Source of the DNA: Takakia lepidozioides
Taxonomy: Eukaryota; Plantae; Bryophyta
Length of the DNA: 64,000 nucleotides
Direction of reading: 5' to 3'
NCBI GenBank assembly: GCA_030704615.1
Contig: CM060734.1
Span: forward strand, 59,582,001 to 59,646,000
Part shown: positions 4,501 through 58,600 of the stretch, one piece after another
Position numbering within the stretch: position 1 is the first letter of the stretch
How the letters are laid out: each line of letters opens with the position of its first letter
The notes under the pieces: model-generated
What the model saw: only the letters and a program-made list of their open reading frames with translations
What the model was told of the DNA's origin: nothing
The model's database searches: none
Program-made: the position numbers and the translations under genes

Positions 4501-4637
4501 GATCTTGATGGTGTGAGAGGTCCAGATGATTCCCCTATGTCTATTCCTCTCTCCCAAAGATATGGATAATTAGCTTTCAGATAGCTTTCTCTTTTTGATG
4601 AATATCTTTGTCGTCTAGCTTCTCTTTCATCACTCAT
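1497..4637 (-). CDS. Gag-protease polyprotein of element A (1046 aa)
   Basis: Retrotransposon gag core (YSGKGDPDVHISQFE), CCHC knuckles (CAKCQNEGHTTTEC, CTICKMDNHSTENC, CYYCNQPGHRKAAC) and aspartic protease motif LIDGGSGVN. Confidence 0.93.
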   Translation of the reverse strand: MSDEREARRQRYSSKRESYLKANYPYLWERGIDIGESSGPLTPSRSKSASPIPEELELDATPSVSLQERLRELVQEEDQSRGERSEVHPWIKDLTEIFDKSWHGTPKAGTPVSEAEDEEGDEDVAEPTESSDSPTPLQLSYMSEEETQGQNLEDENREKKLEEEEYEEVDPTAEVETTTRTSQPVGPGSSGALGSQANEGVGSGGSGGLPGSGSGGTGSVGSSATEAGNTVNIVGPEAGSAQGPPLGGRSTTKTTGPEGPAPARVPAPVSGQKVGPQMALQPTRAKPPFPIYSGKGDPDVHISQFEHMCIVNNENGDDAKMRLFPCSLIKKASEWYARFPDNHFLTWNGLNTAFRNRFRTSKTEDEVYGSLQQLKQKKHETVEEYMEKMELMMKKLAAVPAPGLQKTWFVSGLRPELQKKVDMLPHNTVEEAFETANRIEQLGMLRREKKEDEDSEDESDEEEEQELKRKSKRKEKLKRDNYEKRLEEILKKYATEAATHWRKGVWCAKCQNEGHTTTECHMKEKHCTICKMDNHSTENCYYNRRTAAREPRQVRVHQVQPQPRRNNDQDHYGRSGGYNNGMEGRGNSRGNYQGNSRGNYQGNPRGNYQPGNQDYRNNPRTDQGRGPNGEELCYYCNQPGHRKAACSFWIRHQNEMRAPVNEGPVVAAHMVRPCVVPEVSTMIVTRSKAKLIPPVEEEEDETGSGNDMPEDEETWKDEKELHKEVADTIREMQKSTDIPVADSSDSDGEKEGSEEERKKEDADMQSNEETLAEVICQTKAEITIGQLLAVAPYCRHRLYQAINRIAQETGNTDLNSKVTSYNVKPEGREPVMDFDDSMPVIQLRIGSTELTDVLIDGGSGVNIMTDQLRKKLGLSNMKPAPFTVTMADQRSVQPLGLIRGVKIQIQKMIFMITVTVLKMDEVMEAYSLLLGRPWLKQARVFHDWNSQLLTVHNGMHEIQITTKKSSRLPATRRPRGVREYDWRGGLDEEQEATLFAAHPEWEQVAEMRLESLSCLRGICCGVVTATPTEEKPAFTHHISMKKEKEK

Positions 4638-4658
4638 GTCCCATGTCTTTCATTTCTT

Positions 4659-5246
4659 TTAATGTGGCAATAACCAAAACTCTCTTCTGTAATATCTCTC
4701 GTATATGCCTGGATTTCTTTCAAGCTTCAATGCACCCTTGGCTATACTTGAAGTCTCCGTTACCATATAACCATATGGCAAACAAGTCTGAAAAGCTGTT
4801 CTTGGTGTGAGTTTGATCCACAAAATATCCTTTGGAATCCAATTCTTTACCAGTACAAGCTCTTCATGCATATGAGTATAAACATTCACCTTTCTTTCTT
4901 CCCAGCCTTCAAACTCTACTCGTTTAATGGATAGCAACGCTATCACATAAACTAATGTTGGTAACCAACGTGCTCTTCCTCTACAGGCTACCTGATAAAT
5001 CTTTATCACTCCTTTCTCCAGACCCCATTCTGGATCAGCATCATGCACTCGTTTAAGAATATTTTCTTTACATCCGTCTGGCAATTCCAAGAACCTTTGA
5101 AAGAATTGTTTGGACAATCTTTCTTCCTTCGTTCCACAGGGAATTTGATTCACTTCAAATTCTTTAATGGTCCAACCACCATGATCCCACCAGATGCCTG
5201 TCACATCTGGTTGTTCATGTCCCAGGTTCCCCAGTATGGTCGCCAA
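4659..5246 (-). CDS. Possible extra ORF upstream of gag in element A
   Basis: 195 stop-free codons between PBS and gag, where Tat/Ogre elements carry an extra ORF. The start is a TTG inside the PBS and no domain is recognised. Confidence 0.35.
   Translation of the reverse strand: MATILGNLGHEQPDVTGIWWDHGGWTIKEFEVNQIPCGTKEERLSKQFFQRFLELPDGCKENILKRVHDADPEWGLEKGVIKIYQVACRGRARWLPTLVYVIALLSIKRVEFEGWEERKVNVYTHMHEELVLVKNWIPKDILWIKLTPRTAFQTCLPYGYMVTETSSIAKGALKLERNPGIYERYYRREFWLLPH
5228..5245 (-). promoter_or_regulatory. Primer-binding site of element A
   Basis: TGGCGACCATACTGGGGA begins 2 nt after the LTR-terminal CA; resembles Tat/Ogre tRNA-Arg-type PBS. Confidence 0.8.
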
Positions 5247-5247
5247 A

Positions 5248-5868
5248 TGTCGCGCGGCTTTTACTCACCCATCCCTTCGCTATCCGAGGCGGAAACTCCA
5301 AGATAGAAGAGTTGGAAATCTCTAAGTACTCAGCCCGCGCAGAACAATCAGTCATGACCTACAGCTAGTGTATCATGGGGGTGTTTCCTATTTGTTTCCT
5401 TTTCCGCATTCATCTTAGCTACCTTACCATTGATAATTAAGTATCAGTTTGCTTCATCAATTTATCGGTTTCCTTAACTCCTCCATTCATTCCACAGCTT
5501 CACTCAGATCTCTCTACACAGTGTGATTGTATCGTATAAGTATCAGATTATGATTTATCAGGTATCAGGCCGAAGCCATTATGTCTCTATTCTTCTTTCC
5601 TATATCACTACATAGCTTTGCATATAACAAGCATCTACTAATCCTCTTTTCTCCTTCATCGTGCTCTCCGATCTCCGCTCCCGCCTGTCTCCGAAGTCCT
5701 CCCCGAATAATGATCCCCCTCATTCCCCGTTCTTCCCTTTATCCTCCTATCCGCGGTTCTAACCGTTTCCCTCTCTAACCGTCGTATGTGAACTAACATG
5801 TTCCCTTCACAGGTGTTGTTCCCCACAGTCGTTCCCTGTCCTACTCTTCGTTCCCTATTATCGTGACA
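5248..5868 (-). repeat. 5' LTR of element A
   Basis: Starts TGTCGCG next to the PBS and ends CGTGACA (imperfect terminal inverted repeat). The partner LTR is outside the window, so the far boundary is inferred. Confidence 0.6.
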
Positions 5869-6012
5869 GCTGTGTCAAGCAGTGACTGGCTGTGTTTGGC
5901 TGTGTCGGGCTGTGACTGGCTGTGTGGCTGTGCCGGGCTGTGACTGGCTGTGTGGGCTGTGTGGGCTGTGACGACTGTGACGGGCTGTGTGGGCTGTGAC
6001 GGCTGTGTGGGC
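5869..6012. repeat. Degenerate short tandem repeat (GGCTGTG/GGCTGTGAC units)
   Basis: Directly visible repeated ggctgtg(t/a) units. Confidence 0.85.
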
Positions 6013-6254
6013 CTATGTAACCCCTCTACAGTGCGCTGCTGTCACCCCTAAGGTTCCTGTTTGTCTCAGTCTGTGCAAAAATTAAGGGTACCCTACAGAT
6101 CCCGTATAAGTGTCTAAGTCCCCTACAGTCCTCTATACAAACACCGCCATGTGGGCCTCAGCACCTTAAAACCTGTTGGTAAAAGGTGTGGTTTGGGCCT
6201 TTAATGGAATAAGTGGTTGGAAAGGATTCAGATCCTGCAAGTATGGTCTTTCCA

Positions 6255-8190
6255 AGTGCATGAAATCATCCAGATACTCTTCACTTATTCTGAAACTCCA
6301 AAGGGCATGACTTTGTATTAGTCTGTGATGAAGCTAACTTGCACTTTTATAACCACTGAAGCACATCTCACCATGAATGTTCGTAAGACACCTGTTGTGG
6401 GGACAGCTCACAGTGGCTAGTTCCTCTAGGATTTCACATAGAAATGTGATGGGTAACTGCTGGTTCCTCTTCATTGGTGTTGCTGTCACTACACCACAGA
6501 GATACCTCTTAAACAACTTAGGCTTTCCAGCCGCATCTTGCAATCTGCTCCCACTCTGGGGTGCAGCAAATAGGGTAGCTTCCTGCTCCTCATCCAGTCC
6601 TCTTTTCCAGTGACTCCTCGAGGTCTTCTTGTAGCAGGTAATCTATAGATTTCTTGTGGTAATTTTATCTGTGTATCCCATTATGCACGGTTAGTAACTG
6701 AGAATTCCAGTCATGGAATACCCTGGCCTGTTTCAACCACGGACGTCCCAATAATAAGGAGTAAGCCTCCATGACTTCATCCATCTTCAACACAGTTATG
6801 TGATCATAAAGATCATCTTTTGTATGTATCTTAACTCCTCTTATCAATCCAATGGCTGTACACTTCTTTGATCTGCCATTGTTACTGTAAATGGGGCTGG
6901 TTTCATGTTACTTAGACCAACTTAATTGGTCTGTCATGATATTCACTCCAGAACCTCCATCTATCAGTACATCGGTTAGTTCTGTGCTTCCAATTCTCAA
7001 TTGGATTACTGGCATAGAATCATCAAAGTCCATGATGTTTCTCGCCCTTCCGGCTTCACATTATAACTGGTCACCTTGTGTTCAGGTCTGTGTTTCCTGT
7101 CTCCTGGGCAATTCGATTGATTGCTTGATACAGCCTGTGCCTACAATAAGGTGCCACAGCCAATAGCTGTCCAATGGTAAGGACTGGCATATTACTTCAG
7201 CCAAAGTCCCTTCATTAATGTCTGCATTTTCTTCCCTTCATCCTCACTCACTTCCTCTTCTCCAGAATCAGAGGAATCCGCCATAGGAATATCAGTACTT
7301 CTGCATTTCCTTATGGTATCTGCCACTTCCTTGTGCAGTTCCTTCTCATCTCTCCAAGCCTCATCATCTTTAGGCACATCATTGCCCTCTTCATTATCAT
7401 CATCTTCCTCACTACTGGAGGTATTAGTTTGGCTTGCTTCTGTTACTATCATTGTACTTACTTCTGGTACAACACATGGCCTAACCATGTGAGCTGCCAC
7501 CACTGGCCTCGGAGCTTTCATCTCATTCTGGTGTCTAATCAGAATGAATAGGCTGCCTTGCGATGTCCTGGCTGATTACAATAGTAACATAGTTCTTCAC
7601 CATTGGGTCCTCGCCCTTGGTCTGTCTTGGATTATTTCTGTATCCTGAAGTAACCCTGGATTACCCTGATAGTTGCCTCTGGAATTTCCTTGGTAATTCC
7701 CTCTTGAATTACCTCTCCCTTCCATGCCATTGTTCTACCATAGTGGTCCTGATCAACACTGATGCACCCTTACTTGCCTAGGTTCTCTTGTGTTTAGTAA
7801 CAATCCAGTAGAATGGTTACAGATAATACAGTGTTTCTCCTTCAAGGTATGCCTTCATTCTGGCACTTTGCAATGTGTTGCAGCTCTGTGGGCTCTTATC
7901 ATCCATCTTCAGAGTCCTCATCATCCTTTTCTCTCTCCTGAGGGCTCAAGTTTCAAATGCCTCCTCCACTGTATTATGGGGTCTTTTGCAACTCTGGTTT
8001 AGTCCACTCACAAACCAAGTCTTCTGCCAGTCTGGTTTCATAACTGTTGGTGTCGGAATGTTGATTTTCCAGTTAGGAAATGATTATCAGGGCTTTTTGA
8101 TAAGTGAACAAGGGTCTCATCTTGGCATCATCGTGTTCACTATACACATGTGTGGCTAATGTGTACATCGGGATTTTCCATCATCTGTGG
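6255..8190 (-). pseudogene. Heavily micro-deleted copy of element A gag-PR-RT
   Basis: Colinear with ~770-3800 (e.g. LLGRPWLKQARVFHDWNSQLLTVHNG retained) but with many short deletions. Confidence 0.9.
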
Positions 8191-8241
8191 TGCACTTGGC
8201 AAACAACCCCTTTTGACAGCTTCAGTTGTGTCTGATACCCC

Positions 8242-8746
8242 GCATATCGCTACACAACTACATCGTTGTCCAAACCACACCACACATATATGCACAATAA
8301 AGTAGTCTGCCACAATGATAAGAAAAGCTAAAGACACACTCTTAACACAAGAAACATGAAATCCATCTCTATCACTCTTTAAATAAAGTCGAGCCAGGGG
8401 CACCCCAAGCTATGGGGACTCCACCCCACAACAACCTACTCCCATCATAAGCACACTCAGTCTAAACGCATGAAGGAGCTCGGTCGCGCAGGCTCAACTC
8501 GAGAGAGATGAGCTGCGCGACTGCCGCTCTCGTGAAAGACGGTTCAGGTGTCAAACTAAACTTGACACCTGATTTAACACTTGACCTAAATCCAAGTGTT
8601 AAATACAAATAACTAGCTTTATTCTAGTTGTTTTCACACTGTGCTTATTTAACTTGACAGCTGTCGTGCGCATACGTATCGCTACACAACTACATCGCTG
8701 TCCAAACCACACCACACATATATGCACAATAAAGTAGTCTGCCACA
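8242..8746 (-). repeat. 3' terminal repeat block Y-X-Y of copy B
   Basis: The 85-bp Y unit (TGTCGTGCG...GCCACA) lies on both sides of the 344-bp X unit (TGATAAG...CTTGACA); the outer Y is truncated. The same block occurs at 39976-40490. Confidence 0.9.
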
Positions 8747-8758
8747 ATCGCCCCCTAG
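8747..8758 (-). promoter_or_regulatory. Polypurine tract of copy B
   Basis: Minus strand CTAGGGGGCGAT immediately precedes the TG of unit Y; the same motif is at 40491-40503 and 55858-55870. Confidence 0.75.
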
Positions 8759-9003
8759 CTGGTGGATAGGTCCCTCTACTCCAGATAGCTACAAGATGTA
8801 ATAGCCACAGCCGTACTAAGTCCTCTATCACTGTCCCTATTGTACTCAAACTCTATAGACCAAGAGGCCGGGTACAAGAGTAGCCCCATCGTTAGTCGCC
8901 GTCTTGCAATCTGTGAACTTGAGCCAGGACTCGTGTGTTCAAGGTCTCCTAGTAGCTTGGCCTTGCGTTTCTTGTTAGCCTTCCATGGTTGTATCCACTC
9001 CCA

Positions 9004-10463
9004 CTATCCAATGCAATGTGGACATAACCAATCCCCATCCGGAACCATCTCAAGAGGTGGAGTCAAGCATCCCATATGCCAACCTCTAGAGCATCGATCA
9101 CACACCAGCATGGTGGCTGCCCCTTAGCAGACCCACACAACATGCACCTCAAACCTGCAGATACCACTGCCAGGTTTGGGTCAATCCTGCCATCGACATT
9201 CGGAAGGTGACATGGCGCACAATTACGCACATGGTCCTTCCAAGTTATGCCATCCCGACCCTCCAAGACCAAGACGCCTGAGGGCAAGACCTCTCGAACC
9301 CTCAAAATAACACGTCCTGCAGTCACATCCAAGGTCGTAGGAGCAGTCTGCTGCAGATAGACATAGTCACCAGGGTTGAATCTCCGAACCCCAGGACGAT
9401 AGCCCCCACCACGTATGGTAGCATACCTCAACGTATCACGGTGTTGTGCAATGGCAAGGTTCTCGAAAGCCATGGGCATGACTTCTTGAACAACTCTGCA
9501 CGCTGCTCACATGCACGTGCCCACACGTCCGGATCGTCAAGGTTAAGAACTGTAGCAGCTTCTCTGCGAATGGATGTAGGCAAATCCGGCTCGGCCAAAG
9601 AGAAGAAAGTATGGTGAGAAGGAGGCAAGTGATGCTTGCTTGCTGAACCTGTAGCCCATGGCTAACCAGGGTAACTGAAGGTCCCAATCTCCTAGGTGTC
9701 CCTTCTGCAAGCCATACTTGCGCAAACCCCTCTTTACTGTCTGAACAACTCTCTCTGCCAAGCCATCGGCCTCAGGATGATCCCGAGAAGTGGTGCGGTG
9801 GTCTATCAAGGCCTTGTCACACAAAGCCTGAAACTCCCCCAAGAACTCTCTCCCTTGGTCCGTGAGTACCTCAGCTGGAGCACCGAATCGGCTAAGCACA
9901 CAATCCAAGAATGCATACGCAGCTCCCTCACTAGCCTTATCAGGCAATGGAACCAATTCAATCCACTTGGAGAAGTGCTCCACCATCACCAACACGTACT
10001 TGTTGTGGCGCATGGTCAGTGGCAACGGCCCTGCGAAGTCAAGACTCCACCTGTAGCCCAATCCCATGATCGGAAGAGGGTGCAATTGTGGAGTAGGGGC
10101 GTTGAATGAAGCACGCACCCTGTCACACACCATGCACCTAGCCACAAATTGTTGCACCTCTGTGTGCATACCACGCCACCAATACTGCCCCTGCAGTAGA
10201 CTATGAGTGCGTCGCACCCCAAAATGCCCCAACTCCTCATGGGCATGCCGCACTAACCGTGCCCGCTGTGTTGGGTGAGGCACAATCCTCACTCGACCAT
10301 CCTCCCACACTCGGAGCAGGTGTGTCCCCTCCCACTTGAACCTCTTGGCTCGTTGTAGGATCCGATCCCTCTCCTTGGCAGTCACAGTGGCTGGTGTCTC
10401 CAGTGCGGAGGTAGTCCAACACAACTGAATCCTCATGTATATCTTTGGCGCCACCTTGCTCAT
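9004..10463 (-). CDS. DDE integrase with C-terminal PHD finger (copy B; frameshifted)
   Basis: HHCC motif (HAHEELGHFG...CMVCDR), core WSLDFAGP / LTDQGREF / GLAERVVQ, then PHD CMLC...CDRCSRGWHMGC...WLCPHC before a TAG at 9004-9006. Confidence 0.92.
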
Positions 10464-10689
10464 TGCTGGCCTCAGGGTCCTCAGACACTTGATCTACAGT
10501 CATCCCTGTTGCAGGTCCAACCTGGCCTTCCGCTGCCAAGATACACAGAAATGCAGATGCATGCCATCCGGGCACCATCTCCTCGTCCGTCTCACCATGC
10601 CACCGAGCTCCAGTGTCATCCTGCTGGCTCGTGCATGGATTGCGACTCAACCCATCTGCATTGCGATTGACCAAACCGGGTCGATGCAC

Positions 10690-12060
10690 CACCTGAAAGT
10701 CATACTCTTGAAGGATGAGTGCCCACCGTGCAAGCTTCCCCGTAAGCTTGTCTGACTCCATCAACCACTTGAGTGGTTGGTGATCCGTGACAAGGTGAAG
10801 AGATTGCCGTATAGATAGCACCTGAAGTGTGCCACGGCCCACACTGCAGCTAAGCATTCTCCCTCATATGAGCTATACTTAGACTCTGCAGCATTGTTCG
10901 AGCGGCTAGCATAAGCCACTACGAACTCTCTTCCCTCATCATCCACCTGTGTGAGCACCGCTCCAAGCCCCAGCATGCTCCAATCTGTATGCAGCTGAAA
11001 AGGACGCCCCCTGATAGGTCGTCTCAAGATGGGCGCCGAGGTCAACCTCGCCTTGAGCTCTTGAAAAGCTTGTTCTTGCTCATCTTCCCACTGCCACTCC
11101 TGGTCCACCTTGGTCAGCTTGGTTAGAGCCTTTGCAATGGCACTAAATCCCTTAACAAACCGTCTGTAATAGTTTGCTAACCCCATGAAAGCTCGAACTC
11201 GGCTCACATCCGTGGGGCGTGGAACCTGTGCAATGGACTCTACCTTAGTCTGCTGTACCCCCAATCCTCCAGGATATATCATGTGACCCAGATACTCAAT
11301 CTGGTTGTGGAAAAACTTGCACTTGCCCGGATGTAACTTCAATCCGTGCGTCCTCAAGCGCTCAAATACCCCCTGAAGGTGTCTCATGCTCCTCCACCGT
11401 AGCACTAAAGATGATGATGTCATCTATGTAGCACCGAGCAAACTCCACCCCTGCTAGAATCCTGTCCATGACTCTTTGAAACTCAGCGGGAGCGTTTTTA
11501 AGCCCAAATGGTAAGAACCGCCACTGGTATAGGCAATCCTTCCCGTGCTCATTGATCCCCCAGAATGCCGTCTTTTGCTTATCCCTCCTTGATCGGCAAC
11601 TGGTGATATCCGGATCGTAAATCCAACGTGCTAAAGACCTTGGAATGCCCAATGGCATCAAAGATCTCCTCTGGTGTCGGCATGGCATACCTATCGGACT
11701 TGGTCTGACGATTTACAGGCCGGTAATCACCGCACATACGTCTCTCCGTCCAATTGCCATAGACATCCTTCTTGGCTGGCATCACTGTGGCTGAAGCATA
11801 CTCTCCACCAGAGAGCTCACCAAACCTGCCTCCCAGAGATCTTGAGTCCTCATCTGAATCAAGACCTCTCCATGTCACTGTATCTATAGGGTCTCCGAAA
11901 GATTGGCGTGTCAGTGGCCAACTCAATACGGATCTCTTGACCCTTCAGTGCTCCCAAGTCCTTCAAACTGAAGGCAAAGCAATTCCTGTAAGCCCTCAGG
12001 AACCGCCGTATACGTCGTCTCTCTCCTCCGGTGACAATGGGTCCAATGTCAGGCTCCCAA
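10690..12060 (-). CDS. Reverse transcriptase + RNase H (copy B; frameshifted)
   Basis: RMCGDYRPVN, LDLRSGYHQ, LPFGLKNAPAEFQ, YIDD; RNase H LHTDWS...GAVL, YASRS, TDHQPL. Confidence 0.95.
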
Positions 12061-12419
12061 TTGTCCTCCGTAACTGCAACCTTAAGTCCAGTGGGCTTAG
12101 AGGTAGAGGACGCGTCCCGTGGTTGCTATGCTGCAACCTCTTGAGCAGTACTCCCTTCCTGCTCAGTCAATGACAAGGCCTCATCCTGCCCCATCATCTC
12201 ATCATTGAGAACCTCCTCATCCCGAGAAGAATCCCCAACCTCATCCATCACAGCTGCCTTGGCTGCCAACTCCCTCTGAACCTCGAGCACCTCCCACGTG
12301 TGCCATGGATGTCTACACCCGTGGTCCTCACCGGCTCGCCCCCACTCGCTGCCTGTACCGTCTCGGTAGGCGAGAGACCGTCAAGGGAAGTGCACTCCGC
12401 ACTCTACGTTGCTCAGCCA

Positions 12420-13370
12420 TAGCCAAGCTGATAATCCAGGTCAAGCAATTGAGATCCATTGCTTGCCCCAACACCTGACGACGTGATGCCTCAGAAAGAG
12501 AAGGCACCGCCGTGGTCCCAGTGGAAAACCCATAGCCCGCTCTCGCTCGTCGGCATTAGGCTCCACTAACTGTTGCAACTGAGCATCCCACAGGAGGCCA
12601 GGTCCACCATCCCGAAAAGCATGGGATCCTGGGAAGCTGAGCAGTGTAGGTAATGCTGCTCGTGGTTGACCCACCCTGTTGACCACTGCCAAAGGCGAAC
12701 GGTCATCGTGTCTCACACGTTGAGACTGCCTCCCTGTGTCCAAAATGCCATCCACGTGAGGTGTGCTGGCCGCTGCACCCCATCAAATGCACGCTTGAGC
12801 AGTGCGGGTGGCATCAAGTTAGTCCACCATAGCCGTGGACGATGAGCCCGTGACCCCACTGCAGCTGCATCCAGCAACACTGCTGACCCAAGCCACGACC
12901 GGACTTGATGCACACTGGCCATCACCCTGGCCCGAGAATCACCCATCAGTGGCACATTCTCCAAGATGTATGCTGGAGATACAGCTTGATGAAGCTGCAA
13001 GTGGCGCAAAAATCCGCACCATCTCCCAAAACAGACCCGTCCTCGAGTCTCGCAATCCATTGCCATGCCCGGCTGATGAATGCCCTTGGCAGGGCCAACC
13101 TGCCACTACCAGATCAATGGAGCCAACCTGCTCCAAATCCTGCGCCCCCAGCAACGAAATGTCTGCTGGCAAGGCTTGTTGGTATCCACGAACTGCAGAC
13201 ACTGGCAACAAATCAGGGTACTGCTGTACCAACTGAGCAACATGGCGCAGTGAGACGCGTCGTGCAGTCTCATCCCTCTCCACATACAGGTAACGTCGAA
13301 CTCGTACACCTGCCTGCAGCACTGCAGCCAATCCAGTGCTGATCCCGCCAAACAAGTCCAGAAGGCAATG
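12420..13370 (-). CDS. C5 cytosine DNA methyltransferase domain, DNMT3-like (copy B; frameshifted)
   Basis: Motif I DLFGGISTG, II YVERD, IV GWPCQGHS, VI ILENV, VIII AHRPRLWWTNL, IX ERERAMGF, X RRQVLGQAMD, in canonical order. Confidence 0.93.
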
Positions 13371-13739
13371 CCTTCATCCGGCACTGCCACACAAGAGTGT
13401 GGTGTCCAATGGCGACAACTGAGGTGGTCCTGGTGCAATCACCGCACTCTCCTCCTCTCCTGACGGTACAAAAGCCTCTACCCAGGCTTGTTGCACCCGT
13501 CCATCAGCAGCCTGCTGCAAATCCTTGCTCGTACCCCACAATGGAGTGTGAGCAACCATGGCAGGCAACTCCGCCATACCATGCATGTCATCCTGCTCTG
13601 CTGGAGGTGGCACATCCTCTGCATGGGCATTGCCTTCCAGCAACTCTCCAGGCCAACTAACTGCAGCTGTAAAGGCGGCTAGTGTTGGCATCTTGCCCCG
13701 CTGGGCAGCCGCAATACCCCCAATGAATGTCACAGGGAG

Positions 13740-16310: not shown

Positions 16311-16824
16311 TGACACTATAAGGCTCTAGTACTAATCTAATAGTGACACGGGTGGCACCTGTTGCAGTTAAGGGTCATATCCCAATGGCTCAGGGCACCT
16401 GCACCTGCATCCACCGCAAGAACTCCTATGGTTGGCTGGTCATCAACCCAGCCTCACCATAGAAGAAACACTGGTGGTCTTGCTGGTCATCACTCCAGCC
16501 TCACCACCGACAGCATACTCTAGGATTGACCGGTGATCAAATCCGGCCTAATCCCTATGAAAGCAAGCGCCCACACAAAACCAACATGGCGCACAGTCAA
16601 GCATGCAGGTGTTGGGGGGATCCAAACACAAGAAATCAAAACATCAACACCCCCACACCAAAATCCAGCTGCAATGCTGATCCTGCAGAATATCCCAGCC
16701 CAAAACCCCGGACTGACTGGCCTCCACCAAGAGAGGCTTTGGCAACTACAAGTACAAGGTAATGAAAATAGTACAGAGATGGAGGGGAAGAATAGAAGCC
16801 CGCCAAGCAAGATCTAATCCTGAT

Positions 16825-17567: not shown

Positions 17568-18050
17568 ACAAGGAGTACATCCACAGATTTGTCTCTAATA
17601 TAGACCAGCACAGGTTCTAGAAACAGGATTGTGGATCTTTCATGGCACACTCACACTCTAAAAATTCCATAGATTTTTAGCAGAGTCCCAAAAACAGAAA
17701 CCAGGTCTAGATAGGTAGATTTCCCCTTTCTGCAGCTATCCCTCAAAAACTGAGTCAAACGGAGCTCATTTGACAAAGATATGACCAACCAGCTCTTTAA
17801 ACATTTAAATTAGATCAAAAAGGCTTTTTTTTTTTTTTTTAACACCAAAACGCTTTTGCCATTACAACCTGTTCCCAGGTTATCTACGAGTTCCCAAGGT
17901 CGTTCCCCTCCAGGATTCTCCAGGCACCAAGAGCTCGTTAATTCCAAAACTCGACCTCAGTTGGGTGGGGTATCACACCCTGGAGGCGACTTGCTTTTCT
18001 CTACGCGTGGGCCTGCCTCCTCGAGCTTTCACGACGGCACGGCAGCAGCC

Positions 18051-18155
18051 ATGTTTACGGCACGCAGGAAGATTCAGAAGGAGAAGGGGCTCGAGCCTGA
18101 TGAGTTCAAAGAGGCTGTAGCCCAGGCCTTATTCGACCTAGAGACTACAAACTAG
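18051..18155 (+). pseudogene. RPS7: Captured 5' fragment of a 40S ribosomal protein S7 (eS7) gene
   Basis: [34 protein letters not shown] matches the plant eS7 N-terminus; preceded by a plausible 5'UTR and start context GCAGCCATG. Confidence 0.85.
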
Positions 18156-19763
18156 GAATTGGGGCGATTTCAAGAGCAGATGCACTGCGCAACACCTTCA
18201 ACCAGCGGCAGTCGCGCGGCACCTTCATGGCTTATGGACAGGCGGCCTGCTGTGATGTGGCCGTCTTTGCATGGAATCCAAAGCCAAGACCAGCTTGAAG
18301 TTCCATCAACTTGGTCTTATTCGCATCTCTCGCCAACGATTATTGTTGGCTTAGAATGGTTTCCGCCTTCCTGTTACTGCTCGTGTTTGCTTCAGTGTGC
18401 AATTTACAGGTCAGGGATCGGCAACAACAGGCACCAGATTGCCCCGTCACCACCCCCACAAGGCACAGACAACTTCACTGCCAGGAAAAAGAAAGTGAAC
18501 CATGCTCAGCATGTAGACCCAAGGCCTGGGTCCATCTGCATCAGCTCCAGTATAAGAGAGACAATCATATAGTTATCAAGTCTCTACAGGAATTTGCGAT
18601 TGCCTCAGTAAAGTGGAACTCAATCTGCAGCCTCCTTCCGCCGCCTCTCCATCAACCCTTGGAGGCTCTCGTCCGCTGGCCTCATCCGTCAGCATTGCTT
18701 CTCCTGCTACGAGTCTTCGCATTTCCTCCCCTGCTCGCCTGTGCAGAAGTAAGACCCTTGACGCCGAAATGACAGTAGAGGCAAGTGATCAGTTGGAAGT
18801 GTTCAATGATGAGACAAATAGAGCTGGAGCTCCTTGACCTGTATCGCCACAATCTTGGACTCGGGCAGTGTGCTGAGTTGAAAGTTGGGTTGTGAACCAC
18901 CATTCGACTTTCCACCAGTTTCCACCTCAAAATGGTGGAACCAAGGTGCAAGGCAGCAACAGCTACTTGGCTTTGTACAAACCTGAAGCACTTAAAAAAA
19001 AACGACTTTGCACCTTGCACTCCCCGAAATCAACAATGCCCCAACAACCCTTTTTGTCAGAAAGTTGGTTGCTTATGCAGATAATCGACCAGGTGAAAGC
19101 AGCTTTCCCAGCCACAATCACAAGTAGCATGAAGATTTGTGAGACTCCTGGTTTTGCAGTGTTGATGATATGCCAGCAATGGGCTCCCCGTTCTCCATCG
19201 CTTTGCTGCTAGGCTTTCTCTCTCGGGGCCTGCACCTTCAACCAGCTCGCTGCGCCGTGCTCTACCTGCCGGCGCTGCATTTACTGGAGGGAGCAGATTT
19301 ACAGCTCCTCCTTCAACTGGCTCCGCTACACCAGCTCCACTTGCTCTTCCGCTGCCTTTCCTGACCGCTTCTGGTCTGTCCTGGTTTGAATTTAACACTG
19401 GTCTGTGCACATCGAACTAAGGCGAGCAGCCCGGCCATCTCCAAGCACGGAAGTTCTACCCATCTGCTCGATCACAGGCTCCTCCTTTAAGTCTCGCACT
19501 TGGTCAGTTTCCCAACGGCCAATCGTTGCTACTCCACGATGTCTCCTTACCGACCAAAACGAAGGCTGCTTCCATGCAGTGTAGCTCCATCATGCCCGGC
19601 GGCCTCATGCCAGAACCAACGCTGATCGAAACCTGCATATTTTGTTTTTTTTTTTTTTTTCTAAGCTTCTAAAACTAAGCACTACTTACACACAGGTAAT
19701 CGTACAAGTGCTAACCCTCAACTCCTACCTTGCACTCACAGGTAAGAGGTCATCTCTCTCGAG

Positions 19764-20119
19764 TGATAAGAAAGCTTGAAAGGACATACACTCCCAACAC
19801 AAGAAATATAAAATCCATCGCTATCACTCATTGAAACTGAAGTCGAGCCAGGGGCACCCCAAGCTATGGGGACTCCACCCCACAACAACCTGTACCCCTA
19901 CATAAGCACACTCAAACCTAAACACATGCAGGAGCTCGGTCGCGCAGGCTCAACTCGAGAAAGATGAGCCGCGCGACTGCCGCTCTCGTGAAGATAAGAC
20001 GGACCAGGTGTCAAACTAAACTTGACACCTGATTTAACACTTGACCTAAATCCAAGTGTTAAATACAAATAACTAGTTTTATTCTAGCTGTTTTCACACT
20101 GTGCTTATTTAACTTGACA
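19764..20119 (-). repeat. 5' terminal repeat X of copy B
   Basis: Direct repeat of 8316-8659; TG...CA ends; no Y unit beyond it. Confidence 0.9.
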
Positions 20120-21835: not shown

Positions 21836-23946
21836 AAACCATTGCCTCCCTCTGGGCAATCCTTCTTGACATGGGGTCCTCCACATGTCCCGCACACCAC
21901 ATCCGCCCGTTGTTGGCTTGCAAATGAAGGGAGTGACCCATCTGAGGTCATCTCTGCCCTTCCCTGGGCTTCACCTAAGCCCCCTTGTTGCCTTGAGCAC
22001 GTTGAGGTAGTGGCTGCATAGGAGCACCACTACCCCGTGGTGCTTCCTTAGCAAATCCCACCATGACCACTCGTTCTTCCACCATGTTGAGCTCTATCCG
22101 CGCAAAAACACATTTGCTAAGGTGGGTTGGGCCGCTTGTAGGAGAGTTGCATCCCGCACCCTTCTCCTCAGCTCCTTGTCCAATATCCCGTACCAGAATT
22201 GGACTGCCTGAGCTTCCGTAATCCCTTGGGTTACATTAATCAAGCGCCTCATGCGAATGAAAGCCTCCCTCAAACTCTTAATAGGCTTCCTCTGGAACTC
22301 TTGCAAACTCCTCAACTTCTCTGTCTTCACCCCTTGGTAGTTCTTTCTTAACTCTTCGAAGAACTCCACAACATAGTTGAAGGCAAGCACCGCCACTGGT
22401 GGTGGTGGTGGTGCAGCAATAGCTTGGATGGACGTCATAGCCTTTGTACCACTAGTCCCACTACTGCTCGTGGAAGTTGCCGGTGCAGCTGCCGGTGTGG
22501 CTGCTGCCCTTGTCCCTCTAGTGATGGAGACATAGTCGGGTGACCAGTACATCCTCCACTCCTCGATCTCAATATCGTGCCCCCGCCTAGACTCATGGTA
22601 ATCATCCATGGGCAGCCCCTCAAGGTGCTGAAACAGCCCCTTCCATGCCATGAAAGGCGTAAACAGTTCTGGATTGCGCATTTGCTGCAAGTCACACCAA
22701 CTATCAAACTCTTGGATAAAGTCATCCAACTCGATGGTGCCCACCGCCCCAGAGTACCTACGTGGCCCCTTGGTGGCTCCATACATCTCCTCCATTGTGT
22801 TCCACAATAATAACAAGGAAACAACTTGCACCGCCGGTGTAAGTCCTCTTGATTCACAATCCGAATCAGAACCTTCCGTAGAAGACACAGGAGTTGAAGG
22901 TGGCCTAAACCGCACACCTCGTCTCGTATACCCGCTAGTATCGCTAGTGATCGTACCGGCACTTTCCACGCAACTAGTGGCACCTCCGTGTTGACAAACT
23001 GACACTCAACCGGTCATGAACCTGTCTCTAACCCCCTCTCCACAAGGTAACCGGGTAGAGAACCTGATGCGGCTTATGGTTTGGAATACTAGGTTCCTAA
23101 CATAGCCTGCACCTGCACCTGCATCCACCGCATGCACTCCCATGGTTGGTTGGTCATCACCTCCAACCTCACTGCAGGAGAAACAAAGATGGTCTGACTG
23201 GTCATTAACCCAGCCTCACCATCAACAACATGCTCTAGGGTTGGGTCGGCGATCAAGCCCGAGTCAACCACCTATAAAATCAAGCGCCTATACAAACTAG
23301 CATGACGCATAATCAAGCATGCAGGTGTGGAGGGGATCCAAACACAAGAATGAAAACAACAACTCCCCCACACCAAAAACAATACCACAGTGTCGCTCCT
23401 GCAACCCAGCCCAAACCCGGACTGACTCTTGCTTCCACCTACAGAAAGGTCTCGGCCTACATAGAAGGTGGGAAGCTAAAGCAATGCCTATCCCCAGCAC
23501 GCTCTCATCCCAACACCATCTTTTTCTTCTCTTCTCTCACTTGCATGATCATGAGAGCATCTTGTAGACACTCCTCAAACCGCCCTCCACGAGCTCATGA
23601 AACTTAGCCCATGCAAGCCTCCACAGGGTCCGCCAGTGCCTCCTTACGTCCACCAACCATTTCTCAACCACCTCAGGAAACCATGCCATTCAGTGAGGTT
23701 AAAAAATGGAGCAAATACATATAGGCCTCAACAACATTCTGTCCAAAGGAATTACCTGCAGGCTGGTCTCCCCCATAGTTAAGAATTGGGCTGAAAACCC
23801 GAAAAGATTACCTGCAGGGAAGTAGTCCCTTTTGTTAAAACGCAACAGGGAGGCAATTCCGACTTTTCTGCCGGACCAGCTAGTTCAAAACCGTTGTTCT
23901 CCAGAGCCCAGCCTCCCCATCAAGGTCCCACGAAACAAGTGAAAAA

Positions 23947-23991
<45 letters not shown>

Positions 23992-25177
23992 CCACATTGC
24001 ACCTGTTGCCAATGAGCTATGGCTTCTGCGAAGCCACCAAACCTACTGTCATGCTCGCTTGGGCTCTCACGGCCCACCAGAGGTGCCCCCAACTCAACAA
24101 GCAAGCTATATGCTGCCCAACAAGCTTCATTTCTTCATGAAGCTCACAAAAAAACGAATCTGAAAATACACACCTTTACAAACTTGGTACACATGCACTT
24201 CTCATGCATATCCCCTGGCTCTAGGACGCCTCACTGCTGCTCTTCTAGCCCCACTCTTGCCCACTCCAAGAGCCCTTACACTGCTGAGTTTCAGATTAAA
24301 ACTCCAACTCAGCACATGCTTTACAAGTGCACTGATTTGCACACAAGAGGGACCAGCCCCCTCTCTTCACTCATACCTCTTCATGAGCTTGGAGCTGAAG
24401 CTCCCAACAAGCTGCGATGCATCCCCTCGCAGCTCCACTATTCGGTTGTTCCTCATCTACCCGCAACAACTGATTTCGGGCATAAATACCTGGAGCTGAT
24501 CATATCATCTCCAACCTGCAACACGCTAGCTTCCCATGAGCAGCCCACATTCCTGCAGCTCGTTAACTCGGCCTACAACTGAAGAAGACGACCACCAGTT
24601 TGCCCACTCGTGGCCAGCCTCTCCTCCGCTTTACACTAGAAGCCCAAACTTGGTTGTCATAGCGTTGAGCTATGCAACACTGACCGCCTCTCTATCCATT
24701 GCAAACATGTAACCTATTCGCCTTCGCACTCTAACCGCTTTGGATAGGTTCATGCATGGATCCCTGCACTCTAGGCAGAACCGCTTTTCATGATCTGAAA
24801 ACACAAGTGCTACAACTAACTCGAACCTGGCACTCACAGACTTGAGCTGATCTTTCTCGAATGATAAAGAAAGAATGATACAAGCACACAAGCTCTCTCA
24901 AACTTACACACTTGCACATAAAACCATCACTCATATATTAAGTCGTGTCAAGTGCACCCCACGCCATGGGGAATCCACACTACAGCGCCATAGCTAGATG
25001 CGGTGAGGCTCAACTCGAGAAAAATGAGCCCACCGCGATCTGCCGTGAAGATAACAACGCTAGGTGCCCAAACATATATTGGCCCCTAGATTGACACTTG
25101 GGTCAATCCCAAATGTCAATACATAAAAACTAGCTATTTCCTAGCTAACTTCACACTAGCGGTAAAATAACTTGAGA
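21836..25177 (-). mobile_element. 5' fragment (diverged X, leader, gag) of a sister subfamily, copy E
   Basis: Gag ORF 22094..23005 homologous to 15160..16287 and close to 61944-63590; diverged X at 24862-25177; truncated after the first zinc knuckle. Confidence 0.85.
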
Positions 25178-38379: not shown

Positions 38380-40750
38380 CGACCTTATAGAAAAATAAGA
38401 CTGGGACCTGTAATAACGCTTTGTGAATACCCTTGGAACCACAACAAGCTAGACTGTGTAATAAAACAACCAACTCTGTGGTTCACCCATGAGCCTCTTA
38501 TATAGTTCTAGCTAGGAGTAAATTGGCCTATATTCCGGTGTGAGACACGTTGATATCGGTCAAAGTACTTCAATGAGAACAGATTGGGAGGTCGAGGGTA
38601 CCAGTTGTACAATTTTGTAGACCGCCGTTTCTTCCCACCAGAGGCTCTCTAGAGAAATTGCCAAGATTTCTGAGGCGGACTGCAGGAGCTTAAGCTAAGG
38701 GATTCTGAGTGCTTTTAGTACAGACTTCAGACAAGCTCTGGATAAAGAAGACTCAGAATATTTGGTCATAGTAACCATATCACTCGAGAGCGATGACATC
38801 CAATTTACTCAATACTCCGATGACTCTTGCAGGCCGCTCGTCGTCGACAGTAAACAACCAGGTCATCTCAACTGACCAAGACATCCGTCAGATACATGTA
38901 CAGTATGCTTGCCGATTGTAAGTCCTCCATCACTTGCAAGTTAGCAATCGACGTCGGGAAGTTTGCTCCACGCTGCTCTTAAAGCAACGAGTGCAAGAGA
39001 TCTGCGATGTTCGCAATGCAGTTCAGCAGACCTAATCTGCTCGGCGGCGGTGTGCGGAGGAACACTAGCGCGCTACCTGAATCTGCTCACCTCAAATTAT
39101 ATGTACCCGCGCTCGGTTGCAGTAGTTACAAAGCTCTCGAGAAATATTTGATCAGAAGGCAGAAGCTCACGCGCGCGAGCTCAGCACCTGCTCCGTTGTC
39201 CTCTCGGGATTCTGATTTGCTGTGCGAGGACGCTGAACAGCGATGGAAAGGTACAGACGAAAGTGCAGAAAAGTAAGATACAGAGAGAGTATTGCAGAGG
39301 AGCGGGATGGTGGTGAGCAGGTGCCGTAGTACCAAACCTACCCCCTTAGCCTGCACCACACTTCCCTGTCCTCCGATCCGCGCCAATACTGCCATCGCAA
39401 TCCACGCGTCCCACAGCAGGCCCCACGGCCTTAGCGCGCTGAGCATCTTCAGTCTGCCACCCTCGTTCCCTGTTCCCAGGACCCAATCTATGTCTGATAA
39501 TGAGTCTTTAAATAGTAAATTATATGCCTACATTTCCAAAACCTGGGAGGGACAGCTCATAATGCACACGTGCGACCGGTATGCCGTTCCAGCATGTCAA
39601 ATCTTCCCCACCATCTCTTGAAAGTGGAGTGTAAACTCCAATTGGGGTTACATAGGAGTGTAACGCCACTTGGGGTTATACTGGTTACAAGACTGGGTGT
39701 GTAACTCCACTCAAGGTTACACTGAATGAAGTGTAACTCCACTCAATGTAACTCACACTTGGTCTCCAAATTTGACTACTTAATTCCAAATTTGGCCAAG
39801 AAGAGTTAACACATGACACCAGGGTTACATGGGGTTATATAGGCTTGGGTTGCCAATACGCCGAAGTTACAATACAACAACCTCCCATCAAGAATTGAAC
39901 CAGTGTTGTGCTGGTCCGGGTTTTGAAGGCGGGTACCCGGCGGGTTAGGATCCCGGTTACCCGGTTAAAGGGAGCTGTCGTGCGCATACGTATCGCTACA
40001 CAACTACATCGCTGTCCAAACTACACCACACATATATGCACAATAAAGTAGTTTGTCACAATAAATTAAAACTCACACTGTTGACACAGAAACACGAAAT
40101 ACAACCCAATCACTCGTTAAAATAGTCGAGTCGGGGGCACCTCAAGCTATGGGGACTCCACCCCACAACATCCTATTCTCCCTTCATAAGTACACTCAGA
40201 TTCTAAGCAGTGAAGGAGCTCGGTCGTGCAGGCTCAACTCGAGAGAGATGAGCCGCACGACTGACGCGCTCGTGAAGATAAGATGGTTCAGGTGTCAAAG
40301 TAAACTTGATACCTGACTTAACACTTGAACTAAATCCAAGTGTTACATACAAATATCTAGATTTATTCTAGTTAGTTTCACACTGTGTTTATTTAACTTG
40401 ACAGCTGTCGTGCACATACATATCGCTACACAACTACATCGCTGTTCAAACTACACCACACATATATGCACAATAAAGTAGTCTACCACAATCGCCCCCC
40501 TAGCTAGTGGATAGGTCCCTCTAACTCCAGATAGCTACAAGATGTAATAGCCACAGCCGTACTAAGTCCTCTAACACTGTCCCTATTGTACTCAAACTCT
40601 ATAGACCAAGAGGCCGGGTACAAGAGTAGCCCTATCGTTAGTCGTCGTCTTGCAATCTGTAAACTTGAGCCAGGATCTTGTATGTTCAAGGTCTCCTAGT
40701 AGCTTGGCCTTGCATTTCTTGTTAGCCTTCCATGGTTGTATCCACTCCCA

Positions 40751-53969: not shown

Positions 53970-54098
53970 TGACTTCTACCTTAACCACTCATTAAGAGTC
54001 GTACTTTCTCTACTTCAAATACCATCAACATAGTGCTAACATAAAAGAACTCTATCTAGCTTAACACTACAAAAACTAGACAGAGCATCTCTCTCGAG

Positions 54099-54437
54099 TG
54101 ATTAAAACTAAACTCACACTATTGACACAGAAACACGAAATACAACCCAATCACTCGTTAAAATAGTCGAGCCAGGGGCACCCCAAGCTATGGGGACTCC
54201 ACCCCACAACATCCTATTCATAAGTACACTCAGATTCTAAGCAGTGAAGGAGCTCGGTCGTGTAGGCTCAACTCGAGAGAGATGAGCCGTACGACTGACG
54301 CGCTCGTGAAGATAAGATGGTTCAGGTGTCAAACTAAACTTGACACCTGACTTAACACTTGAACTAAATCCAAGTGTTACATATAAATAACTAGATTTAT
54401 TCTAGTTAGTTTCACACTGTGTTTATTTAACTTGACA
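54099..54437 (-). repeat. 5' terminal repeat X of copy C
   Basis: Direct repeat of ~40062-40403, followed by TSD GAGC. Confidence 0.92.
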
Positions 54438-55199
54438 GAGCCAATAAAACCACAATGATATGAGAAGGCAAGGTCAACTTCGCATGTTTTTTTTTTTTTA
54501 AAAAAATTATTAATAAATATTTTATTTTAATAATAAAACACAATCAACAACAAACAAGATGATTTGTCAACTACTCTGCAATCATGTGGTGATTTGTTTT
54601 AGCACAAGTTGTGGGATTATTGATTTGGCTATCGCTCCAGTGTCGACATGTTTAAGTCTGGCATACACACATATTAGACAAATCTTGCTAGCTTCTGGTC
54701 ATTGGTCGAGATGGGATTATTTAGGGAATTTTAACTTCACCCAATATGTCACATTAATGAGATGAGGCCCATTTGCCTACATGGGAAGTTAGATTTGCAT
54801 GCGTGGTATAAGAAGAGAGCAATATTCCTAACAGAATGAAACGTAGCTCTTGAGAGAGAGAAGACTAATTTATGGTGTCATTGAGCCCCCCCCCCTTCCC
54901 CACCCAAAAAAAAGGCCACAATATGGGGAAGAGGCTAGAATTACTTGCGCTAGCTTCGGCTTGCATCATACTATATGTATGGTGTCGAAGAAATACTGTG
55001 TTTTGTTGGGAAAGTGGGCTTCTTTTAAAGGTCATAACATCTTAACCAATGTTGGGCGAGTATAGGAATTTCATCATATCCACATGTTTCAATTATAGCC
55101 AATATTTTGGAGTTAGGATTATCTTGTTACACCACGAAGAGCAATATATTGGAAACAAAGTCATGAGCAACGAGGCTTTGGCTGCATAGGCATCACAGA

Positions 55200-55693: not shown

Positions 55694-58600
55694 TGTCGTG
55701 CGCATATATATCGCTACACAACTACATTGTTGTCCAAAACCACACAACACATGTGCACACCAAACACTAGTCTATTACTAGTCCACCACTAGTGCAGCCA
55801 CTAGTCCAACCACTAGGCTGCCACTAGCCACCACTAGGCTGCCACTAGTCCATCACAATCGCCCCCCTAGCTGGCGCTTAGGTCCCTCTAAGTCCAGGTA
55901 GCCACAAGATGTGATAGAGGCCATAGCCTCACTAAGTCCTCCACCACTGTCCCTACTACACTCAAACTCGATAGATCAAGAAGCCGGGTACAAGAGTTGC
56001 CCCATCATTAGTCGCCGTCTTGCAGCCTGTGAAATTGAGCCTGAGATCTCGGGTATTGACTCCTATGAGCTTGGCCTCCCATGTCTTGTTAGCTGCCACT
56101 AGTCATATCCACTGCCACTATCCCAAGTAGTGTGGACATAACCAATTTCCATCAGGAACCCTCTCAAGAGGTTGTGTCAAGCATGCCATGTGCCAACCTC
56201 TTGAGCATCGATCACACACCAGCAGAGTGGCGGCACCACAAGCATGCCCACATAGCATGCAACGCAACCCTGCATGTACCACTGTAAGGTTGGGATCTAT
56301 CCTCCCATCCACATGTGGAAGGTGACATGGCGCACAAATACGCACATGGTCCTTCCATACCATGCCATCTCGACCCTCTAGAATCAACACTCCTGAAGGC
56401 AACACCTCCCTAACCCTTAGAATCACACATCTTGTTGTGACATCCAAGGTCGTCAGCGTTGTCTGCTGCACATACTAATAGTCCCCAGGGTGGAAATGCC
56501 GAACACCTGGCCGATATCCCCCTCCACGTATAGTGGCATACCTCAATGTGTCTCGGTGTTAGGCAATAGCAAGATTTACAAAAGCCATAGGCATGACTCT
56601 CTTGAACAACTCTGCCCGCTGGGCACATGCTTGTGTCCACACATCCAGATCATCAAGGTTGAGGACATCTGCAGCCTCCTTGCGAATAGATGCAGGCAAA
56701 TCTGGCTCTCGGCCAAAGAGAAGGAAATATGGTGAGAAGGAGGCAAGTGATGCTTGCTTGCTAAACCTGGAGCCCATGGCTAACCAAGGTAGCTAAAGAT
56801 CCCAATCTCCTAGGTGTCCCTTTTGCAAGCCATACTTGCGCAAACCCCTCTTCACTGTCTGAACCACTCTTTCTGCCAAGCCATCGGCCTCGGGATGATC
56901 CCGAAAAGTGGTACGGTGGTCTATCAAGGTTTTATCACACAAAGCCTGAAACTCCCCCGAGAACTCTCTCCATTGGTCCGTGAGTACCTTAGCTGGAGCA
57001 CCGAATCGGCTAAGCACATGATCCAGGAATGCATACGTAGCCCCCTCATTAGCCTTGTCAGGCAATGGAACCAACTCAATCCACTTGGAGAAGTGCTCCA
57101 CCATCACCAACATATATCTGTGGTGGCGCATCGTCAGTAGCAACGGCCCCGCGAAGTCAAGACTCCACCTGTAGCCCAATCCCATGATGGCTATACGATG
57201 CAACTGTGGTGTAGAGGCGTTGAATGCAGCACGCACCCTGTCACACACCATGCACCTAGCCACAAATTGTTGCATCTCTGTGTGCACACCACGCCACCAA
57301 TATTGCCCCTACAGTAAACTATGAGTGCGTCGCACTCCAAAATGCCCCCAACTCCTCATGGGCATGCCGCACTAACCGTGCACGTTGTGTTGGGTGAGGC
57401 ACGATCCTCACCCGACCATCCTCCCACACTCGATCCCTTCCCACTTAAACCTCTTGGCTCGTTGTAGGATCCGATCCCTTTCCTTGGTAGTCACACTAGC
57501 TGTCGTGTCTCCAGTACGGAAGTAGTCCAACATAACCGAATCCTCATGTATATCTCTGGCACCACCTGGCTCATCACTAGCCTTAGGGTCCTCAGACACT
57601 CTGTCTACAGTCATCCCTGTTGTAGGTCCAACTTGACTTTCCGATGCCAAGATACACAAAAAGGCAGATGCATGTCATCCCGACACCATCTCCTTGTCCG
57701 TCTCACCATGCTACTGAGCTCTAGTGTCATCCTGCTGGCTCGTGCATGGATTGCGACTCAATCCATCCGCATCCCTATTGACCAAACCCGGTCGATGCAC
57801 AACCTGAAAGTCATACTCCTAGAATATTAGTGCCCACCGTGCAAGCTTCCCCGTAAGCTATTCTGACTCCATTAACCACTTGAGTGGCTGGTGATCAGTG
57901 ACAATGGTGAAGAGATTGTCGTATAGATAGCACCTGAAGTGTGCCAAGGCCCACACTGCAGCTAAGCACTCCCCCTCATATGAGCTATACTTAGACTTTG
58001 CAGCGTTGTTCGAGCGGCTAGCATAAGCCATTACAATCTCTCTTCCCTCATCATCCACCTGTGTGAGCACCGCTCCAAGCCCCAGCATGCTCCAATTGTA
58101 TACAGCTGAAAGGGACGCCCCCCTGATAGGTTGTCTCAAGATGGGCGCCGAGGTCACCTCGCCTTGAGCTCCTGAAAAGCTCGCTCTTGCTCAGCCACTC
58201 CTGGTCTACCTTGGTCAGCTTGGTTAGAGCCTTTGTAATAGCACTAAATCCCTTGACAAACCGTCTATCGTAGTTTACCAACCCCATGAAAGCTCGAACT
58301 CGGCTCACATCCGTGGGGCGTGGAATCTGTGCAATGGCCTCTACCTTAGTTTACTGCACCCCCAATCCTCCAGGATATATCATGTGGCCCAGATACTCAA
58401 TGTGGTTGTGGAAGAACTTGCATTTCCCCGGATGTAATTTCAATCCGTGCGCTCTCAAGCACTCAAACACCACCTGAAGGTGATTCTCGTGCTCTTCCAC
58501 CATAGTACTAAAGATGATGATGTCATCTATGTAGCACCAAGCAAAGTCCACCCCTGCCAGAATCTTATCCATGACTCTCTGGAACTCTGCGGGAGCGTTC

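Follow-up and report, generated by a model that had tools for sequence, protein, structure and literature searches.

A conserved palindrome inside the LTR is a putative integrase site in Ty3/Gypsy-type retrotransposons of bryophytes and green algae

The window, a 64-kb stretch of DNA from Takakia lepidozioides, holds three decayed copies of a Ty3/Gypsy retrotransposon whose two repeats, A and B (X and Y in the initial annotation), meet at a short palindrome. Judged from sequence comparison of these copies with their relatives, the inner palindrome and not the ends of the cDNA is very probably the site used by the DDE integrase of the element. The initial annotation had read the palindrome in the same way, and this reading is supported by the element ends, target duplications and junctions described below.

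The palindrome and the copies in the window

All window copies lie on the minus strand and are described here in the order of transcription. The sequence TTGACAGCTGTCG, which had been reported to join the two repeats, is indeed present at 8654 and 40398 and at no other site within the 64-kb window. Copy 1 (about 8241-20119) and copy 2 (39976-54437) are arranged as A-body-B-A-B, and copy 3, which runs from 55694 to beyond the window, carries B alone at its 3' end. The intact termini had been placed exactly at the two halves of the palindrome, and all four positions hold, with TGACA ending at 20119 and 54437 and TGTCG starting at 39976 and 55694; the left end of copy 1 is not intact, as its terminal B2 begins near 8241. 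The second joint between the repeats, CA-A-TG, is also found, one base to the left of the 8314 given before, and may be read as an end-to-end joint of cDNA. The features of the window are:

8241..8314, minus strand: terminal B2 (Y) of copy 1, 94.7% identical to B1 over 76 bases, with ~7 terminal bases gone
8313..8317: A2|B2 joint CA-A-TG of copy 1, apparently U5 and U3 ends joined over one shared base
8316..8659, minus strand: A2 (X) of copy 1, the inner repeat, 91.9% identical to its own A1 and 88.3% to A1 of copy 2
8654..8666: B1|A2 junction inside copy 1, where the ends abut as GACA-GC-TGTC around two spacer bases (8660-8661); putative integrase site
8662..8748, minus strand: B1 (Y) of copy 1 plus 2 bases after the polypurine tract, from the sequence
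8749..8758, minus strand: polypurine tract (G run) just upstream of B1, copy 1, from the sequence
9013..12065, minus strand: broken pol of copy 1 with RT, RNase H, H2C2 zinc finger, rve integrase with D-D-E, and PHD finger (Pfam, tblastn with the relative L018, alignment)
12126..12128, minus strand: in-frame TAG with CAA as the next codon, separating the gag-protease-methylase frame from pol; TAG-CAR in 3/3 window copies and in the relatives L018 and L082
12403..16104, minus strand: broken frame of gag, protease and C5 cytosine methylase (Pfam PF03732, PF00145; tblastn with L018)
19751..19763, minus strand: primer-binding site right after A1, copy 1, complementary to a site within A near 19953-19967 (0/300 shuffles as good); likely self-priming
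19764..20119, minus strand: A1 (X) of copy 1, the 5' end of the element, beginning TGTCA on the minus strand
21836..25176, minus strand: diverged, truncated fourth copy with its own A1 and a self-complementary primer site
39972..39975: left target duplication GAGC of copy 2, from the sequence
39976..40492, minus strand: 3' block B1-A2-B2 of copy 2, with an intact end at 39976, the A|B joint near 40059-40064 and the palindrome at 40398-40410
54086..54437, minus strand: primer-binding site (54086-54098) and A1 (54099-54437) of copy 2; A1 is 96.1% identical to its own A2
54438..54441: right target duplication GAGC of copy 2, from the sequence
55694..55859, minus strand: 3' end of copy 3, B only, extended by a short tandem repeat and ending at a palindrome half; the 5' end lies outside the window

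The exact 10-mer of the palindrome occurs 14 times in the 816 kb made up of the related loci and the window, always at the inner junction and against an expectation of 0.8; the 14 occurrences include repeated assemblies of one locus. A GACAGCT at 8216 belongs to the neighbouring element and was taken as chance. Contigs of the same species diverge into unrelated flanks exactly before 8662, with 38 in set X3 (agreement 0.37), 34 in X4 (0.36), 2 in X6 and none listed for X1; X1, X3 and X4 represent one sample, possibly the source of the window itself, and X6 a second one. Those departing at 8748 mostly continue with GATAA, the start of A. Right-hand ends, behind 8659, are not among the loose ends listed in this comparison.

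Several rearrangements and foreign pieces accompany these copies. Copy 2 has a 3.5-kb insert with internal repeats (46738-50236) and a deletion of ~0.8 kb in RT (42601-42667), and copy 3 contains an inverted stretch of ~460 bp (61160-61618). Copies 2 and 1 differ in a stretch of 1.7-2 kb just after the primer site (52375-54085 and 17805-19750, respectively). In copy 2, this stretch holds an open frame of 258 codons (53199-53975, minus strand) that matches plant genes, some of them named GIY-YIG, at 56-69% identity along most of the frame and is likely captured host sequence. Positions 1-7872 and 8230-8240 belong to a second, different Gypsy element with a gag-protease frame at 1497-4649 and RT in 7-1377 that is partly duplicated at 6405-7872. 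At the damaged left end of copy 1 this element has no LTR of its own, and what we take to be its tRNA-Met primer site adjoins that end (8230-8240). Pfam also matched a piece of DDE_Tnp_4 transposase (29919-31386) and a LINE-type zf-RVT piece (33019-33639).

Ends, target duplications and junctions of related copies

Two scans yielded 83 related loci, which gave 40 distinct 3' ends once repeated assemblies had been removed. Excluded from these 40 were the interrupted copies L017, L027, L028, L064, L065 and L071, the loci L074, L076, L083 and L084, and L018 and L082 as collapsed contigs. Re-reading of 27 loci that at first had no clear 3' repeat block revealed the junction in 6 of them; most of the others end too early. 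L081, L082, L083 and L084 are eukaryote-type retrotransposon contigs inside bacterial genome bins, probably through contamination, and the bin behind L081 contained nothing beyond the two known matches. B1 and B2 of L081 are 100% identical, which indicates a young family, and L082 was assembled as a circle with a 127-base overlap and is likely a collapsed repeat.

The 40 distinct 3' ends comprise 22 with B-A-B and 18 with B alone. All of them stop at ACA, which is GACA in 35. Wherever the end of A2 was readable, it continues into B2 (22/22 copies) and in no case into the flank. In all 12 intact 5' ends, from 10 loci and two window copies, the element starts at the TG half and B is absent upstream; one of these ends has a G-to-A change. 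Element ends thus coincide with the palindrome in the relatives, as had been proposed for the window, and inserted copies start with TG and end with CA without the GC spacer. In one family, B ends in a 15-base tandem repeat that itself ends in GACA; here, L051 (2241-2403) stops at an inner unit in B2, and L038, L056 and L080 are without one unit in B1.

Among the 10 copies with two readable ends, six are flanked by an exact 4-bp target duplication (GCTC, ATGT, CATA, AACC, TTGA and TACA), one by a duplication with one mismatch and three by none; L052 has no target duplication. One of the six rests on two overlapping contigs (99.9% identity over 4.9 kb), and two of the six are A-body-B copies. 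As a control, cross pairs of flanks matched in 1 of 90 cases, and lengths of 3, 5 or 6 bp in 0 of 10. These duplications suggest that a DDE integrase acts at the ends formed by the palindrome halves. They also bear on whether the layout might be an artefact of nesting, of recombination between ordinary LTR copies or of assembly. Such an origin would fit the age and rearranged state of the window copies and the damage at the left end of copy 1. Base-exact ends and target duplications recur across independent genomes and families, however, the flanks at 8662 are diverse in same-species contigs, and the layout is also found in a curated algal library. An artefact is hardly credible on these grounds, and we regard it as refuted by the target duplications.

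We then compared the two junctions. At the B|A palindrome, the spacer measures 2 bases in 33/33 junctions from eight LTR families, so that the palindrome is kept across copies as the initial annotation had required. The integrases of these eight families are 46-87% identical to that of the window, and the rest of the LTR shows little or no alignment between families. Of the 32 departures within the 10-bp core of the palindrome, 30 are transitions. The A|B joint consists of bases that adjoin the primer site and the G run. This joint had been predicted to be the more heterogeneous one, which it is to a modest extent: length variants occur in 7/21 A|B joints and in 0/33 B|A junctions (Fisher p 0.0007), and each family has one modal form (10/16 and 4/5). 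The -2 and -1 variants were each rejected as one clade (p-AU 0.0006 and 0.006) in a test on 16 copies from which the joint bases were excluded and which recombination among copies could blur. Two families are without TG at the U3 end of the cDNA. Taken together, the conserved B|A palindrome, the variable A|B joint and the missing TG at U3 argue for selection on the inner site and not on the cDNA ends.

Coding content and relation to known elements

In the broken frames of the window, Pfam detected gag, C5 cytosine methylase, RT, RNase H, an H2C2 finger (PF17921) and an rve integrase (PF00665). The near-intact relative L018 encodes gag-protease-methylase and, after an in-frame TAG, RT-RNase H-integrase-PHD. 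Its best match in the PDB is Ty3 Gag-Pol (E 4e-98), and PFV integrase is its top match among stand-alone solved integrases (E 2e-21). The catalytic D-D-E residues are retained in the integrase alignment. The C5 methylase (PF00145) is present in window copies 1 and 2, L018 and L084. In all five copies examined, the TAG between methylase and RT is followed by CAA or CAG (12126-12128; L018:5083-5085; L082:3489-3491), and this conserved in-frame TAG is likely a site of stop read-through. In the distant relative L084 (122-9919), the methylase lies between RNase H and integrase, not before RT, in a single frame of 3265 codons, and a 713-codon frame without a Pfam match comes next. The closest named proteins are from liverworts and mosses (Calypogeia, Marchantia and Sphagnum), and proteins of K. 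nitens are 56-59% identical to the window integrase. A search of viral contigs gave a single distant match (33%), and an alignment query gave none.

The element shares with Ty3/Gypsy the domain order, a DDE integrase with H2C2 finger, a primer-binding site and polypurine tract bordering the repeats, TG...CA ends and a target duplication of the 4-6 bp class (4 bp in 6/10). It departs from Ty3/Gypsy in that inserted copies are not flanked by two whole direct LTRs (B at 0/12 5' ends; A2 meeting the flank in 0/22). It is thus a structural variant of Ty3/Gypsy and not a canonical member. A chromodomain after the integrase, the trait of chromoviruses such as Chlamyvir and Tcn1, found no match in L018, L082 and L084, and a PHD finger is present. 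Tf1/sushi elements and Tcn1 resemble the window element in a primer site complementary to the LTR but, in the survey cited, carry a whole LTR at either end and in most cases a chromodomain (PMC6317226), whereas the integrase described here ends in a PHD finger.

The A-body-B-A-B layout is already in print. The repeats of KnitGypsy-Dnmt3 from Klebsormidium nitens were likened to those of a DIRS retrotransposon in the legend to Fig. 4c of de Mendoza et al. 2018 (PMC5890265). Like KnitGypsy-Dnmt3, the window element has A-body-B-A-B repeats, Gypsy domains and, in the polyprotein region, a C5 methylase. The portions of that account concerned with the element give no junction sequence, target duplication, priming sites or mechanism (PMC5890265).

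The same layout of split direct repeats is described for PAT, Ngaro and VIPER, but there with a tyrosine recombinase in place of a DDE integrase (in the part of PMC8557442 on these elements); the window element has the rve integrase, a polypurine tract and 4-bp target duplications. We therefore considered a tyrosine recombinase acting in trans, which would integrate circles at the palindrome and leave the integrase as a passenger. Palindromic crossover sites and split repeats are indeed typical of tyrosine-recombinase retroelements, as described there (PMC8557442). A tyrosine recombinase (PF00589) had no match in the 73 frames scanned (window frames, L018, L082, L083 and L084), however, and the D-D-E residues are kept. 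Moreover, DDE chemistry fits the TG...CA ends, the missing 2-base spacer and the target duplications, which are six different 4-bp sequences with no relation to the junction. Such a recombinase is a very improbable agent.

Closely similar joints occur in Chlamydomonas. In Gypsy-7a_cRei, the left LTR is shorter than the right one by the final 8 bp of the latter, according to the legend to Fig. 6 of Craig et al. (PMC9940879), which suggests that B equals 8 bp in this family. Gypsy-7a is active in laboratory Chlamydomonas, with 86 new insertions reported in CC-4532 (PMC9940879). In the part of the supplementary library covered here, with names assigned by entry order, the full-length entries of Gypsy-14a, -14b, -22 and -N4a read B-GACAGCTGTC-A-B (PMC9940879 supplement), and 16 of the 20 internal entries with a visible end meet the LTR at CA-GC-TG, 3 being ordinary-looking and 1 incomplete. 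An integrase stretch near Gypsy-22 has the same EHFSK motif, as read by eye. In these library entries B spans about 8-55 bp, against 85-180 bp in the window element and its relatives. The primer site of Gypsy-7a is seemingly of the tRNA type. The sections of the Chlamydomonas account that deal with these families offer no mechanism (PMC9940879).

Priming signals and a proposed route of integration

A G run precedes B1 in 50/50 of the 3' ends listed. In 10 of 15 5' ends, the site right after A is complementary to a stretch halfway along A (0/300 shuffles as good); of the others, one reached p 0.047 and four were not significant, and in one family self-priming was not significant in 4/5 ends. 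L018 and L082 differ by matching changes at the primer site and at the mid-A pairing site. Several ends have a TATA-like box 26-37 bases upstream. In the window family, the pairing site is framed by GGCTCA...TGAGCC arms, and in A the inferred start site is preceded by two inverted repeats, one nested in the other (8545-8625). Self-priming from a site complementary to the LTR is described for Tf1 and Tcn1 elements in the survey mentioned above (PMC6317226).

That B+A is the true LTR, i.e., the unit that is copied, is indicated by the G run that precedes B and by the primer site that follows A. In LTR chemistry, such priming signals yield a linear cDNA of the form BA-body-BA. The first half of A1 is absent from the RNA and must be copied from A2, which fits the closeness of A1 and A2 within the window copies (91.9 and 96.1%, compared with 82.9-88.3% between copies). 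B2 has its own B1 as the nearest in 9/16 copies of one family and 2/5 of another, in a comparison in which several B1 borders overshoot and the values for L038 and L080 are inflated.

From these observations we propose that the cDNA ends are joined first and that the integrase then cuts the inner palindrome of the circle, an order of events that we consider probable. Reverse transcription of the LTR type, with self-priming behind A and plus-strand priming at the G run in front of B, would give linear BA-body-BA. The ends would then be joined into a 2-LTR circle, either by host end-joining or by a template jump of the reverse transcriptase on a 1-2 base overlap. In the palindrome of the 5' LTR, the integrase would nick after CA on both strands, leaving CA-3'OH ends with 2-base 5' overhangs, as in processed retroviral ends. 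A-body-B-A-B would finally arise by strand transfer with a stagger of 4 bases. Turning BA-body-BA into this order takes both a joining of the cDNA ends and an opening of the 5' LTR. A-body-B-A-B would be the sole form that has both a promoter and a 3' copy of R, and would thus be able to replicate again. Copies of the form A-body-B might derive from 1-LTR circles or from later recombination between the two Bs.

A 2-LTR circle has two palindromes, and the mirror form A-B-A-body-B would thus be expected to be as common as A-body-B-A-B, yet it was found at 0/12 5' ends, compared with B-A-B at 22/40 3' ends (p 0.0005). Just one of the two possible inner sites therefore appears to be used. The 5' site could be chosen because it lies nearest the joined ends, or A-B-A could be lost faster by recombination. 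Against the proposed route also speak the A|B joint, which is more uniform than random end-joining would give, the 3/10 copies without a target duplication, the weakness of self-priming and of B1/B2 nearness in one family, and the lack of right-hand ends among the loose contig ends listed. Variants of the A|B joint could also have arisen from later slippage on AT repeats.

Two other routes to the same layout were weighed. In the first, the inner palindrome would be cut on linear cDNA, in the 5' LTR near the free U3 end, and both new ends would be transferred while the short B piece is held, with the leftovers joined by the host. Such a cut would give the same product and the same variable A|B joint with no need for a free circle, and loading of the integrase from the nearby free end would explain the 0/12 mirror products. 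A loose piece of apparently just 8 bp, as read from the Gypsy-7a legend, would be difficult to hold and ligate, however, and failed joins should leave broken 3' ends, yet 40/40 are precise (interrupted copies uncounted). We consider this course unlikely. In the second, copying would proceed as in DIRS or PAT elements: the RNA would run into B2, the A|B joint would be inherited, and reverse transcription would rebuild the palindrome ends via the inner B1-A2 template, so that the integrase would act on free ends. The A-body-B-A-B layout is shared with split-repeat elements (legend in PMC5890265), and both the absent mirror form and the modal joint would be accounted for. Yet the G run before B1 and the primer site after A1 make B+A the copied unit, the joint variants recur on separate branches and are made of the bases beside the two priming sites, and the palindrome has no purine run for a strand start. 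Copying of this kind seems to us still a little less likely than the cut on linear cDNA.

The proposed cleavage of a closed circle has parallels in other DDE systems. Foamy-virus integrase cuts a palindromic LTR-LTR junction on both strands with the loss of two bases (PMC1180852), and HIV-1 integrase cleaves the LTR-LTR junction in vitro (PMC1905944). In both viruses, as far as the cited sections describe it, the palindrome is the joint of two cDNA ends and whole LTRs are kept at both ends after integration, whereas in the window element each LTR carries the palindrome as a templated internal sequence, and the inserted copies are circularly permuted. In the copy-out paste-in circles of IS3, IS30, IS21 and IS256, inverted ends abut with a short spacer (1-2 bp in IS2) and are cut and inserted (section on these circles in PMC3299598). 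There, the junction is built from DNA by the transposase; in the window element it is copied by the reverse transcriptase, and the circle would close elsewhere.

No account of a mechanism came up in the literature searched, which did not include the REM1 paper, the Craig 2021 thesis or the Repbase reports, any of which may cover the structure. The layout is known from two figure legends; the 4-bp duplications, a conserved attachment site inside the LTR and the tie to an active family of Chlamydomonas appear to be undescribed so far. The balance tips slightly towards a wider picture, in which a branch of green-lineage Ty3/Gypsy elements, from Chlamydomonas to bryophytes, would have shifted the site of integrase action away from the cDNA ends and to a templated CA-GC-TG palindrome within the LTR, with end-joined 2-LTR circles as the required substrate. 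With the polypurine tract moving away from that site, B would have lengthened from about 8 bp to 180 bp; the families would then be steps between ordinary LTRs and DIRS-like split repeats, and this pathway would already operate in Gypsy-7a.

End-joined 2-LTR circles are usually viewed as dead ends, and whether closed LTR circles can serve as integration substrates is a long-standing question for retroviruses and retrotransposons. Here, a natural family would show the footprint of circle integration in nearly every copy, at a palindrome conserved from green algae to land plants. The family may also show how split direct repeats could arise from LTRs with no tyrosine recombinase involved. Search programs that require two whole LTRs, as in the survey described in part in PMC6317226, would miss such elements or set their borders wrongly. 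As the same CA-GC-TG joint is seen in the library entries of the laboratory-active Gypsy-7a, which multiplies in common Chlamydomonas strains, the proposed mechanism would be directly testable.
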